Source of the DNA: a candidate division FCPU426 bacterium
GTDB lineage: Bacteria > Oederibacteriota > Muellerivitia > Muellerivitales > Muellerivitaceae
DNA: 64,000 bases
Direction: 5' to 3'
Assembly (NCBI GenBank): GCA_963847625.1
Contig: CAWKAR010000033.1
Span: 1-64,000, forward strand
The notes beneath the pieces were generated by a model that was not told where the DNA came from, ran no database searches, and worked only from the letters and a program-made list of their open reading frames with translations. How positions within the stretch are numbered: position 1 is the first letter of the stretch; each line of letters starts with the position of its first letter. Positions 36,658-41,424 of the stretch are shown here, piece by piece. Made by a program: the position numbers and the translations under genes.

Positions 36658-37710
36658 CCGAATTCACGGAGTAAGTGCAACACTTCGCCGGAAGACTTCC
36701 GCCGGAGTTTTAAAGCCCAAACATTTCCTGGGCCTGTTATTGAGCCATCTTTCTATGGTCCTGAATTCTTTGAAGGACACTTTAGCAAGATCAGTCTTTT
36801 TAGGCAAATGGCGGCGGACAAGACCGATAGTATTTTCCACCGTACCTTTTTCCCAACTGTGGAAAGGGGCGCAGAAAAAGGATTTTGTACCAAGCACGTG
36901 GTTGGTTTCCAAGTGGTTGGTGTTTTCGGTTCCGTTGTCATAGGTCAGACTCAGGCGGGCGTCTTGAGGGAAGCGGCATAAAGCGCGGTTGAGGCTATGA
37001 CTCATTTGGCGAGCGGTCTTTCGTTTGAGCTTTCCCAACTTGGAAAAACGGCTTTGACGCTCGACGAGAGCCCGCATAGCCACTTTACTCTGACGAGAGA
37101 CCATGGTGTCGGTTTCCCAATGGCCGAATTGCTTGCGTTGATTGGCGATCTCGGAGCGCTTATCGATGGAAACACGGCCTGGGATATGGTTTTTGGCGTG
37201 CTTACGGCTATGGCCAAATGAGAATCGTCGCCGGTGGTGTCGAACTAGGCAAGGAATCAGCTCAGTGGCTTCAGCATAAACCCACTGATAGATAGCTTCA
37301 GGACCAATGGTTTGCTTAGGCCGTAGGTGACCTAATCGACCTGAAATGAGTTCTGGAGACCAGCCTCGTTTCAATTGACGACGGACGTAGGCACGAATTC
37401 GTTTTGTTTTCAGGCGTAAACGGCGTGCTCGTTGTTGGTTGCGGTCAACATACCGTTGATGGGCTCGATGAGAAAGATAATAACCAGAACGGATAGGGGG
37501 AGCATTGCGCTTGAGTTCCCTGGAGAGGGTGGAAGGAGACCTCTTCAAGGCGCGTGAAATTGCTCGAAGGCTAAGACCCTTTCCTTTCAAGACGGATAAA
37601 TGATCTCTTTCTTCAACGCTTAAATGCTTGTATTTCTTTTTCATAGCCGCATATCCTATTCATGCGGCCTTCTTCAGACACTAAGTGTTGCACTTACTTA
37701 TGGAACTCGG
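36658..37710 (-). mobile_element. IS30-family element
   Basis: 28-bp imperfect IRs CCGARTTC-N4-AGTAAGTGCAACACTT around a transposase. Confidence 0.93.
36664..37644 (-). CDS. IS30 transposase
   Basis: N-terminal HTH, GHWETDT, TYDNGTE, WEKGTVEN, LNNRPRKCL. Confidence 0.95.
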   Translation of the reverse strand: MKKKYKHLSVEERDHLSVLKGKGLSLRAISRALKRSPSTLSRELKRNAPPIRSGYYLSHRAHQRYVDRNQQRARRLRLKTKRIRAYVRRQLKRGWSPELISGRLGHLRPKQTIGPEAIYQWVYAEATELIPCLVRHHRRRFSFGHSRKHAKNHIPGRVSIDKRSEIANQRKQFGHWETDTMVSRQSKVAMRALVERQSRFSKLGKLKRKTARQMSHSLNRALCRFPQDARLSLTYDNGTENTNHLETNHVLGTKSFFCAPFHSWEKGTVENTIGLVRRHLPKKTDLAKVSFKEFRTIERWLNNRPRKCLGFKTPAEVFRRSVALTP

Positions 37711-37819: not shown

Positions 37820-38392
37820 TTATAAAATTATCCCACCTCTTTCCTCGACCTTAAAACGTTTCAAAGCCTCTCGCGCTGTATTCTTTGAGTTATATATCTC
37901 ATTTCCAAGTCCTAAAAATATTTTCTTATATCCTTCATCCTTAAGAAATTCCGGGTGTTCTATAAACAACCAAACATTAAATATTTTTAATTGATGCGAT
38001 AATTTTCCTCCTAACATCAAAAACATTTGAATGGCATCAAATAGATAAATCTCAGTAATATTTAATGGAAATTCTAATTTTTTATCCCCATCTTTATTTG
38101 CGTGTTTGAAAAAATTTTGATGGGCATTGATAGCATCTAGCAATACCTTGCGGTATTCAGGACGGATTCTATCAGAATCTTTTATTAGGCTATGAATACC
38201 TTTCTTTTTACCAAGATCATGAAGTATTCCGTGCGCCGCTCCAACAAGTGTGTGGATTGATACTTCATTACCATCATTGAAAAATAATTCGATGGCTGTT
38301 TCTAATTGTTGATACGCCGCATCCATTTTGCTAATAATTGATTTCGGATGTCTTACATCTTTAATATCCTTATTTTCATCAGGGATATTCAA
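37820..38392 (-). CDS. AT-rich hypothetical protein
   Basis: GGAGG RBS before TTG 38392; SK.DAA..QL.TAI.LFF and NFFKHA motifs. Confidence 0.75.
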   Translation of the reverse strand: MNIPDENKDIKDVRHPKSIISKMDAAYQQLETAIELFFNDGNEVSIHTLVGAAHGILHDLGKKKGIHSLIKDSDRIRPEYRKVLLDAINAHQNFFKHANKDGDKKLEFPLNITEIYLFDAIQMFLMLGGKLSHQLKIFNVWLFIEHPEFLKDEGYKKIFLGLGNEIYNSKNTAREALKRFKVEERGGIIL

Positions 38393-38416
38393 AACATCCT
38401 CCGCTTTAATAAAAGT

Positions 38417-38471
38417 AAGGGTCAGGCCACCCGCGCTGCAGCGGGTGGCAGGGAACATTCATTGCTTTAAG
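38417..38471. repeat. REP-like hairpin repeat; other copies at 36099-36154 (inverted) and 40530-40585
   Basis: GGGTCAGGCCACCCGC-gctgca-GCGGGTGGCAG-(G/TT)GAAYATTCA conserved among copies. Confidence 0.8.
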
Positions 38472-38614
38472 TCTTTAAGTCATTCGGGGTCTTGCAACAA
38501 ACCTGGGGCCTTGATAGCCGTTTAATCGAGCCTATCTTCTTTCAGGATGTTGAGAAGGTAAACCGCGCCGGCAACATTTTCAAAAATAATATATTTTTCC
38601 TTTAGCAAATTTCT

Positions 38615-38995
38615 TCAGTTTACCCAACTTCCCGGATATAGAAACCTATTTAAAACTCCATTAAAAATATATAAAATTATCCAAACAATCCCCACTAACA
38701 ACCAAAGCAATAATTTTGGCCGATTTCTTTCCCACGCAATTAAAAACAACCAGACCAAATTAACAAAAAACATCGGTATAAGTATTAGAAGTGTCAAAGC
38801 TCCTCCCATAAAATTTTCACCAGTCGTCATCATCCACGCCTGGCCACCACCAAATACTTCAACTTTCATGGGATGAATATTTCGGAAAACAATGAAAACA
38901 CCTATTAACCCAATAAAATTAACAATAAGCCATGACAAGGATTTCTTTGCTTCGGCGACCAACTCGCTTGAATCACATTTCAATGGTAATTTCAT
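38615..38995 (-). CDS. AT-rich small membrane protein (about 3 TM)
   Basis: Hydrophobic segments; AAGGA RBS. Confidence 0.65.
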   Translation of the reverse strand: MKLPLKCDSSELVAEAKKSLSWLIVNFIGLIGVFIVFRNIHPMKVEVFGGGQAWMMTTGENFMGGALTLLILIPMFFVNLVWLFLIAWERNRPKLLLWLLVGIVWIILYIFNGVLNRFLYPGSWVN

Positions 38996-39127
38996 TTTTC
39001 ATTCCTTGGAAAAAAGATAGCATGTATGGGCCAGCAACCTACGTAGTAGCTTTGATCAATAGTAGCTGATCAAAATAACGCGGGTTGCTCCTGGTAAGGA
39101 GCCTATCCGCATACGGAGGGCTGACCC

Positions 39128-40234
39128 ATGGGAAATAATAGCACGGTGGTAGGGCTGGATGTTCATAAGGAAACGATCACGATTGCAGTTTTAAGGCCCG
39201 ACAAGGATCGTCCTGATCCCTCGGTTACGGTTGAAAATCAGCCATCAATCATTGAAAAGAAAGTACGGGAACTTAATCGCCGCCATGCCCCACTGGAATT
39301 CGTTTATGAGGCTGGGCCTGGGGGATTTGCTTTGTATAGGCAGATTACCCAATTGGGACACCCTTGTGCGGTGATTGCGCCCGCATGGATGCCGATGAAA
39401 CCTGGGGACCGAGTCAAGACGGACCGAAAGGACGCAGAAAAGCTGTCTTGGTATTGGCGCATGAGGGATTTGAAAGAAGTCCGGGTACCCACGCCCGAAG
39501 AAGAATCCGTGAGGGATTTGCTGCGTGTCCGGGAAGATGTTCTCGCAAACCAGTTGAGAGCCCGTCATCGGTTATTGAAATTCCTGCTTAGGCAAGGCCG
39601 GATTTATCGGGGTGGCAAACACTGGACCCAAGCCCATAGGGAATGGTTGAGACACCAGAAGTTTGAGCTGCCAAATCTCGTAAAGACCTATGAAGCGAAT
39701 TACCGAATTTTGGCTGAGATTGACGTGCACTTGGCTGATTTGAATTGTGAAGTTGAATTGCTGGCACAAGACGAGAAATATCGAATTGCTGTCAGCTATT
39801 TGAAATGCCTGAAAGGCGTTAACACACTCACGGCCATGACTTTATTAGCAGAAAGCGGAGATTTCAGGCGGTTTAAAAACGCCCGCAGTTATATGCGATA
39901 TACGGGAATGGTCAGTTGGGAAGACAGCACCGGAAGCCATGTTTACCGGGGCGGGATTGTCAAATCCGGAAATGCCCATTTGAGGCGAGTGCTAGTCCAA
40001 GGGGCATGGACCTATCAGCTACGAAGCCTTGGGAGTCCAACACTCGCTAAACGGAGAAAAGGTTGTCCCCCGGAAGTTATACATTTAGCACGAAAAGCTG
40101 ATGAACGTTTGCATTTGAAGTTTCGGCGGATGGTAAGCCGAAACAAACGGTCTCAGGTGGCGGTAGTGGCCATCGCACGGGAATTGGCTGGCTTTATCTG
40201 GGCGATTGGACAGATGATCCCATCCGATCAGTAA
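39128..40234 (+). CDS. IS110 DEDD recombinase
   Basis: GLDVHK, YEAG, KTDRKDA; Tnp20 region with EDSTG and K.GN.HLR. Confidence 0.95.
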   Translation: MGNNSTVVGLDVHKETITIAVLRPDKDRPDPSVTVENQPSIIEKKVRELNRRHAPLEFVYEAGPGGFALYRQITQLGHPCAVIAPAWMPMKPGDRVKTDRKDAEKLSWYWRMRDLKEVRVPTPEEESVRDLLRVREDVLANQLRARHRLLKFLLRQGRIYRGGKHWTQAHREWLRHQKFELPNLVKTYEANYRILAEIDVHLADLNCEVELLAQDEKYRIAVSYLKCLKGVNTLTAMTLLAESGDFRRFKNARSYMRYTGMVSWEDSTGSHVYRGGIVKSGNAHLRRVLVQGAWTYQLRSLGSPTLAKRRKGCPPEVIHLARKADERLHLKFRRMVSRNKRSQVAVVAIARELAGFIWAIGQMIPSDQ

Positions 40235-40262
40235 TAGATCCGATGAGAAGAAAAAGAAGGAC

Positions 40263-40464
40263 GAGCTCTGATTTCAGGAGCGTGGCGCGGCACGGAGAAC
40301 CCTCGACGACCCCTTGTGCAATGAAGTCTTATTTCATGACGCACGGACAAAGATCGAGGCAGCTCCCGACGACAGGTCATCATGCGTCCCTGCCCTTTGG
40401 GGTAATACGCGAATATCAGTTTGATCAACCGTCGGAAATGGCTACGCTCTTGGAATCAGGGCTC
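40263..40464 (+). ncRNA. Predicted bridge/seekRNA of the IS110 element
   Basis: 21-bp closing stem (40263-83/40444-64) around two internal-loop hairpins whose loop strands match the target and donor junctions. Confidence 0.8.
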
Positions 40465-40737
40465 TGTCGTGCTGGTCCGTGAAAAGACCAACACCCTAGA
40501 ATCTGAAGGTTGACTGGCCCATACATATCAGGGGTCAGGCCATCCGCTCCGCAGCGTGTGGCAGTTGAATATTCAACATTTTATTAATTGAACCTAACTT
40601 CTTACAGTTTATTGTTGAGCCTTTAAACCGCACCAACCCCGTAAGCGTCAACGCGGGGCCGTAGGCGCTGGCGTGGCTGGGACATTCTGGGCGGCTTGTT
40701 CCTGGGGGGTGGCCTCCATCCCGGCCGGCTCGCCCCC

Positions 40738-41424
40738 TCACATGTGGTGGACTACCACGCAGGCCACCTTGCCGATAAGCCAAAAGAAAGCCACAACGAC
40801 GAAAAGTTGAAACAAGAACGTAAATCCTGCGATCAGCGCTTTCCTGGTCTTCAGACCCAATTCAGCGGCATGACTTAAACTGCGCTGTTCCGGTGTTAAG
40901 CCTCCCTCATTTTTACCTGGAGCCCCTGATTCACCACTCCCCACCTGTCCCGGGCTTTGTCGAGGAGCCTGCCCCGAGCTTAGTCGAGGGGTTATTTTTT
41001 TGTCCGACCGCGTCTTTCTTTTGATCCGGGAGGGATCAAAATCCTTGGCCGGTTTTCCGCTTAAAATATGGTCCACGAGACCCATGATTTTCCTGGTTTT
41101 TAAACGGTGGGCGAGAACCATATCCAAAGCCTCATGGAATACCCTGCGAAAGTCATCCACCCGGCCTATCAATCCCGCCAGGGCAAGGGCGCATCTGGAG
41201 GAGAGTTTATAGCTGGGCGTGCCCTTGGCCGCCCTGCGGACTTTATCGATTGCCGGTGGGTCGAAACAGTTTTTAAGGTTTAGAAGGTCCGTGATTTGGC
41301 TGTCACTTAGTTTCAAGGCTTGTTTCAGTTCAGGCCTTGGAGCGGAGTAGCGTCCTTTAAGTTGGGCATTCAAGTCCGCAACCTGTTTGAGCCATTTCAT
41401 GGGGTCTTTTTTAGATTCAGGCAT
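40738..41424 (-). CDS. ParB-like HTH DNA-binding-domain protein with C-terminal transmembrane helix
   Basis: AAAGGAG RBS; ELKQALKLSDSQITDLLNL, LSSRCALALAGL and MVLAHRLKTRKIMGLV follow the ParB DBD helix pattern; hydrophobic C-terminus. Confidence 0.65.
   Translation of the reverse strand: MPESKKDPMKWLKQVADLNAQLKGRYSAPRPELKQALKLSDSQITDLLNLKNCFDPPAIDKVRRAAKGTPSYKLSSRCALALAGLIGRVDDFRRVFHEALDMVLAHRLKTRKIMGLVDHILSGKPAKDFDPSRIKRKTRSDKKITPRLSSGQAPRQSPGQVGSGESGAPGKNEGGLTPEQRSLSHAAELGLKTRKALIAGFTFLFQLFVVVAFFWLIGKVACVVVHHM

Follow-up and report, generated by a model that had tools for sequence, protein, structure and literature searches.

The element at positions 39015 to 40531 of the window (the whole analyzed stretch of 64,000 nucleotides) is very probably an intact IS1111-type insertion sequence that spread recently to nine sites, an autonomous bridge-recombinase of the ISCARN28/ISSso6/ISEc45 subclade acting by the mechanism proposed here. 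It lies on the forward strand, as do all features given below unless stated otherwise, and comprises 1517 bp including both AG cores. Nine full-length copies of its gene, at 99.7 to 100% identity, were found in the genome. Seven copies lie completely within a contig, and all seven are 1517 bp long, differ at zero to two positions and start and stop with the same AG. Since these copies share length and ends, the borders of the element could be set independently of an earlier annotation made from the letters of the window (the sequence-only reading), which had placed the right end at 40538. The true end is 40531, while positions 40532 to 40538 are seven nucleotides of the target. The agreement of ends at other insertions, to which that annotation had tied its interpretation, was complete among the seven. 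Two further copies are truncated by contig ends, and two left-end stubs supply extra flanks. A left-end stub of 127 nt (G000:C24:98551-98677) possesses its own perfect left flank and is located 6 nt before a full copy; it may have arisen by deletion or be an artefact of the assembly. A diverged left-end remnant of 78 nt with 94% identity (G000:C39:50393) has a different left flank.

The termini show the architecture of IS1111. The left AG core copy (39015..39016; CT on the other strand) is followed by the left terminal extension (39017..39021; 7 bp with the core), which would become the right donor in the circle, and by a subterminal inverted repeat of 13 bp (39022..39034). Its counterpart at the right end (40514..40526) matches at 13 of 13 positions and is followed by a 3-bp extension and the right AG core copy (40527..40531). 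Insets of 7 bp on the left and 3 bp on the right agree with the rule described for IS1111, i.e. subterminal repeats of 11 to 13 bp with extensions of 7 and 3 bp (PMC11187229). AG is present at both ends of the seven complete copies and empty paralogous repeats contain a single AG at the same place, which is the IS110 pattern of a short core at both ends without true target duplication. As in other IS1111 elements, the longer non-coding region lies 3' of the gene (297 nt past the stop codon versus 113 nt ahead of the start codon). Circularisation at the AG core would bring a -35 box (40510..40515; 5/6) and a -10 box (39018-39023; 4/6) together, with a 17-nt spacer that is formed only across the circle junction. 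With 9/12 consensus positions in total, this pair probably represents a sigma-70 promoter built by circularisation, and by analogy to other IS1111 elements its transcript would bear the recombinase gene and the 3' RNA. On the linear form, a consensus promoter was not found between 38900 and 40700. Neither a circle junction nor an empty-allele joint was detected in four DNA contig sets aligned to the stretch, a kind of data in which rare forms are dropped.

The 3' region (40235-40531) is predicted to form a stable fold (z -3.83; none of 200 shuffled sequences was equally stable), in which an outer stem encloses two hairpins. Rfam gave no match up to E 1 within 38900-40700. The predicted bridge RNA or long seekRNA extends from about 40259 to 40468, with the outer stem formed by 40263-86 and 40441-64. 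The first, target-binding hairpin (40301..40359) is closed by CCTCGA (40301-06) and TCGAGG (40354-59), the second, donor-binding hairpin (40366..40435) by CCGACG (40366-71) and CGTCGG (40430-35). Both pairs of stems had already been recognized in the sequence-only reading, as had the motifs GACCCCTT at 40308-15, GGACAAAG at 40345-52 and ATATCAG at 40413-19, which is identical to 40525-31; all of them were found at these positions. We propose that target choice is made by the first hairpin, which would pair with both DNA strands in the region of the core, a step supported by covariation (see below). Its right guide (40308..40314; 7 nt) is the complement of the core and of the first 5 nt of the right target and corresponds to the LTG of IS621 in a mirrored frame, its left guide (40345..40352) has the identity of 6 nt of the left target plus the core and is equivalent to the RTG in this frame. 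The top-strand match thus precedes the bottom-strand match, which is the guide order of IS1111. The eighth nucleotide that had been counted as part of the right guide, T40315, is probably scaffold. In seven guide sets with a T between core and inner stem, this T complements the target in only two, namely in the set of the window element and in that of its 89% relative; a role as guide base was therefore judged unlikely. Positions 40306-07 mismatch at every occupied site.

The guides deduced from the window fit the other insertions as well. Seven of the nine right flanks match the guide at 5/5 and two at 4/5 positions, compared to a background of 0.15% and 1.8%, respectively. On the left side, four or more positions of the 6-nt guide are matched by seven of nine flanks, as against 5.8% of the AG sites in the background; two of the flanks match at 6/6, while the C39 site matches at just 1/6. 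In the window copy itself, the left target flank (39008..39014) is matched at four of its last six nucleotides, in accordance with the 6/8 match including the core that had been reported earlier. The guide C mismatched there is matched in seven of the eight other left flanks. Among homologues, the core-pairing CT in the 5' strand of the target hairpin occupies column 8, 9 or 10 after the closing stem, and it is shifted by one between the window element and its 92% relative. Its varying position indicates that the register of the guide is flexible.

The sequence-only reading had suggested a search for covariation between loops and flanks. Loci were gathered from genomes and metagenomes (26 and 80), related genomes (30), plasmids (10) and genome slices (5). 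Their ends were determined by an inverted-repeat search anchored on ATG/CAT, as an unanchored search gave many false ends. The covariation sample consisted of 45 loci in which both ends and an RNA anchor were recognized and AG was present on either side, representing 27 distinct guide sets; loci lacking an end or the anchor, those with non-AG cores and L053 (a false repeat) were left out, and the anchor of L069 was shifted by 2 nt by hand. The target guides clearly track their flanks. For the right flank, 109 nucleotides matched versus 16.9+/-6.3 after shuffling, for the left flank 78 versus 19.8, and in neither case did any of 20,000 shuffles reach the observed value. With one member for each of 13 clusters (60% identity), the result for both guides was 0/10,000 in three of three draws. 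The right guide scored zero in four of the 27 sets, partly due to misplacement of the anchor. The same genome harbors a second element of this subclade with 50% amino acid identity, two copies (G000:C3:32913-33992 and C13:3913-4992) and its own guides and targets, as well as a third, more distant IS110 family (29%) with three copies (C14, C21, C30).

The right flanks belong to a family of host repeats that start with GGGGTCAG, and the insertions are located at the outer edge of these repeats. The guide would direct copies to this edge, including that of TIRYT terminal repeats, where insertions are intergenic and presumably tolerated. In the window, the targeted repeat lies outside the element at 40531..40576, begins with the TIRYT-type motif GGGGWSAS and contains a short hairpin at about 40538-63; it is a related repeat without an adjoining Y1 gene. 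A sister repeat at 38418..38461 is unoccupied; it has one G fewer and therefore mismatches the right guide. An ORF of 126 aa starting 20 nt away from the insertion is situated between these sister repeats. Together with an ORF of 212 aa it makes up the AT-rich minus strand region 37820-38995, and a 228-aa ORF follows on the other side (40738-41424, minus strand). No Pfam or NCBIfam match was obtained for these three ORFs. An IS30-family transposase gene (36664-37644, minus strand; NF033563, 236.7 bits) is located 1.4 kb upstream of the element. In three of the nine cases, the right flank is the terminal inverted repeat of a Y1 HUH gene; two of these flanks are the ends of C24:100257-101201 and the third is the upstream end of a gene on C39. 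The C24 protein gave hits to PF01797 and NF047646 above and to PF08299 below the cut-off, and GGGGWSAS is present at both ends of its gene. This fits the description of TIRYT, or TnpA-Y1 subclass 2.1, as a Y1 HUH gene with a C-terminal DnaA-like HTH and inverted repeats starting with GGGGWSAS (PMC3733652, PMC6006769). Two 89% relatives from metagenomes are inserted directly upstream of TIRYT-like Y1 genes. Insertions of IS1111 elements into TIRYT repeats were not found in our literature searches and are not mentioned in the available text of PMC3733652 and PMC6006769. At G000:C24:98684-102730 (L147), the two terminal repeats of a single TIRYT-like gene each contain a copy of the element; the two copies are inverted relative to each other and make a composite unit with the left ends outward. 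The right junction of L031, upstream of a TIRYT-like gene, is spanned by a 13-bp tandem duplication.

It is conceivable that the preference for these repeats exceeds what the guide prescribes and that the recombinase, or the structure or state of the DNA in TIRYT-type repeats, adds specificity at +6/+7. These two positions, which are not encoded by the guide, are AG in nine of nine occupied right flanks but only in 9 of 28 empty sites matching the guide (9 of 20 outside long ORFs), and the AG is kept even where pairing of the guide fails (C55, C19, L028). Moreover, a stem-loop determinant in the target has been reported for ISPpu10, and a hairpin is found on the equivalent side at the window site. 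On the other hand, no target hairpin is common to the seven rebuilt sites, and the occupied sites are not independent, since one gene contributes two of them through its two ends. The same pattern could arise if insertions into genes, tRNAs and promoters were removed by selection. The +6/+7 bias may thus reflect either help beyond pairing or selection against other insertions, and an additional determinant appears to us a real possibility, if somewhat below an even chance. Among the best unoccupied matches to the full guide are those in two tRNA-Pro genes (G000:C60:10714 and G000:C45:38863), at 12 and 11 of 13 non-core bases, which are better than those of the repeats actually occupied, yet neither is occupied. 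Their vacancy may be due to selection, an extra determinant or chance.

The core and the donor side were compared to IS621, which has dA6, dT7, a CT core and the handshake bases A81/U82 (PMC11208158). The AG core, noted for the element in the sequence-only reading, is the norm in the subclade, ISSso6 included, and equals the CT core of IS621 on the opposite strand. It was therefore rejected as a new feature. If the frame is mirrored, the order of the guides becomes that of IS621, A, T, C and T are found at donor positions 6 to 9, and the 3' target guide is followed directly by A and U. These putative handshake bases (40353..40354) equal the first two bases of the left end of the element. In homologues, the first of them follows the left end of the respective element in 26 of 27 sets (20.8 expected) and the second in 19 of 27 (10.4 expected), and for the second base the covariation persisted after collapsing relatives (40 to 183 of 10,000 shuffles). 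In the donor loop, the core C is the last guide base and the next base is A, like C130/A131 of IS621; this A occurs in 18 of 25 sets, under an anchor that allowed A, C or T. For the handshake bases of the donor loop, UU (40420-21), there is no match to the target in the window element. This column covaries weakly (11/27 versus 5.9 expected; 204/20,000 shuffles), and for the second base no covariation was detected (0/12). Some homologues deviate in the core. L105 has TG at both ends with matching guide bases, L093 has GG ends and a donor guide reading TG, and L008, L009, L054 and L058 show AG on the left and AA on the right. The first core base hence varies in L093 and L105, whereas the equivalent base of IS621 is nearly invariant. 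For ISEc45 and IS4321, a clean shared core was not found by the end search; the mirrored frame was read within the AG-core subclade. Most likely, the element uses the chemistry of IS621 but reads the DNA on the other strand, so that in gene orientation the 'bottom' strand would be the first to be cleaved and exchanged. The reversed guide order has been taken as a possible difference in mechanism (PMC11187229). A statement on a strand flip was not found in the literature passages on bridge and seekRNA elements that were covered, though the figures of PMC11208160 may show it.

We further propose that the second hairpin base-pairs with the junction of the circle; this pairing would be firm at the right end and weak at the left end, and the 13-bp subterminal repeats probably give the remaining donor specificity. 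The firm part is the guide at 40413..40419, whose sequence is that of the core and the 5 nt preceding it at the right end. A clean guide for the right donor had been missed in the sequence-only reading, because only AUC (40379-81) pairs cleanly. By its position such a guide exists at about 40376..40382, where A40382 faces the core A unpaired; it covaries in homologues but is weak in the window element. One may argue instead that the target hairpin alone acts as guide, that the protein recognizes the donor via the subterminal repeats and that the match in the second hairpin is vestigial or regulatory. Movement of ISEc11 was indeed achieved with an 82-nt RNA containing only the target part (PMC11187229). 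Furthermore, the left-end donor guide of the window element comprises only three contiguous pairs, and donor ends are highly conserved, so that matches partly concern constant sequence. However, position 2 of the left-end-side donor guide follows the donor in 23 of 25 sets (12.2 expected) and, after collapsing relatives, in 10 to 11 of 12 to 13 (79 to 99 of 10,000 shuffles). In L069, L071, L081 and L100, matches of 5 to 6 nt track the own ends. The right-end guide is matched at 132 of 135 positions versus 119.7 expected, with an anchor chosen after the data had been seen. Altogether, the donor guides covary with the circle junction at about p 0.01 once relatives are collapsed, which is weaker than on the target side; position 1 is fixed by the anchor, and positions 3 to 6 taken singly gave weak or null covariation. 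Guidance by the target hairpin alone is thus rather unlikely, and pairing of the second hairpin with the donor is preferred. A wider combination of these ideas can be put forward only tentatively and is probably not correct in all its parts. It states that IS1111 runs the IS621 reaction on the opposite strand, with the handshake and both donor guides kept, so that the reversed order of guides in seekRNAs would reflect a flipped frame and not another mechanism, that this lineage has specialized on TIRYT terminal repeats through a +6/+7 determinant outside the guide and bypasses the two better-matching tRNA-Pro sites, and that its nucleophile is a threonine.

The recombinase gene (39128..40234) encodes a DEDD protein of the IS110 family with 368 aa and the residues D11, E61, D99 and D102. 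Profile searches revealed PF01548 (DEDD RuvC) and PF02371 (Tnp), and NF033542 scored 204.6 bits compared to a cut-off of 140. The protein is 24 to 26% identical to IS4321/IS5075 and 36 to 37% to ISSso6/ISEc45, which suggests a divergent branch in relation to the tight IS1111 clade, whose 330 to 350 aa are a descriptive range and not a hard limit. Thr268 is aligned to the catalytic Ser241 of IS621. Among the 22 homologues that could be scored in this column (5/27 were unscored), SG occurred in 20, SA in one and TG in one, the latter being the 92% relative L108. The replacement of a serine conserved in 20 of 22 scored homologues, together with the presence of the 50% identical paralogue in two copies, raises the question whether the copies are real but the enzyme is inactive, the sibling enzyme having mobilized them in trans. 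Yet all nine copies, located at different sites, encode the same or a 99.7% identical protein, TG is shared by the 92% relative, and Ser267 adjoins Thr268. SG and TG are both described as motif variants in IS1111 (PMC11187229), and the catalytic-serine motif of IS110 is accordingly present as the TG variant. An inactive enzyme mobilized in trans is therefore very unlikely; the nine near-identical copies argue for an active recombinase.

L108 is also informative with regard to the RNA. Compared to the window element, its guide-strand positions differ at 7 of 20 whereas only 17 of 135 positions differ elsewhere, and it resides in another target. Its right guide fits its own flank with 4 nt plus the core, its left guide with 2 nt in register. 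As judged from the sequence, this relative is a visible case of natural reprogramming, in which guides and target have both changed. That the loop matches are chance or reader-selected coincidences, short motifs picked post hoc from about 300 nt, can practically be dismissed in view of the out-of-sample fit at eight other sites, the 0/20,000 shuffles in homologues and the coordinated change in L108. The initial idea, that the element is an intact one of the IS1111 type whose loops match target and donor, has thus been strengthened by the copies, the covariation and the reprogrammed relative, with the caveat of Thr268 in the column of the catalytic serine.

The element is useful in three respects. 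It was recently active, and nine natural targets along with a reprogrammed 92% relative make the guide rules readable. Through the mirrored frame and the handshake at 40353-54, it also offers a concrete way, open to testing, of reconciling the bridge description of IS1111 with the seekRNA description. Finally, TIRYT terminal repeats now join the repeats that are known to serve IS110-family elements as landing sites.

Among the matches listed, ISSso6 and ISEc45 are the nearest named elements, and no named element exceeds 37% identity. ISSso6 has the AG core, the 7/3 extension and the same donor-loop motif as the window element. The ISCARN28 recombinase shares the N- and C-terminal motifs of the subclade by eye (PMC11208160, Supplementary Table 1), and its RNA is one of six elements drawn in that paper (Fig. 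6d). What separates the window element from ISCARN28, ISSso6 and ISEc45 are its guides and targets and the threonine in the catalytic column. With ISEc11, ISPa11 and ISKpn4 (PMC11187229) it has in common the repeats of 11 to 13 bp at 7/3 bp, the 3' non-coding region, the putative junction promoter, a top-strand match 5' of the bottom-strand match and the targeting of repeats (REP in the case of ISPa11). By contrast, its protein comprises 368 aa instead of the 330 to 350 given for IS1111, and the target is a TIRYT-type repeat. From IS4321 and IS5075 it differs by a distant protein and by its target, which consists of TIRYT/RAYT-like Y1 terminal repeats and related dispersed repeats. The DEDD and Tnp domains align with those of IS621 and ISCro4 (PDB 8wt6, 9t56), even though the similarity of the proteins is weak (E 1e-10 and 6e-7). 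Agreement in the mirrored frame extends to the CT core, A6/T7 of the donor, the A/U handshake and the donor-loop guide, which ends with the core C. Unlike in IS621 and ISCro4, the RNA is encoded 3' of the gene, the subterminal repeats are long and, with respect to the gene, it is the other DNA strand that would be read. At the DNA level, the element has the features by which IS1111 is recognized. It is a well-supported new ortholog of a known system, from a subclade of which an RNA, that of ISCARN28, is already in print.
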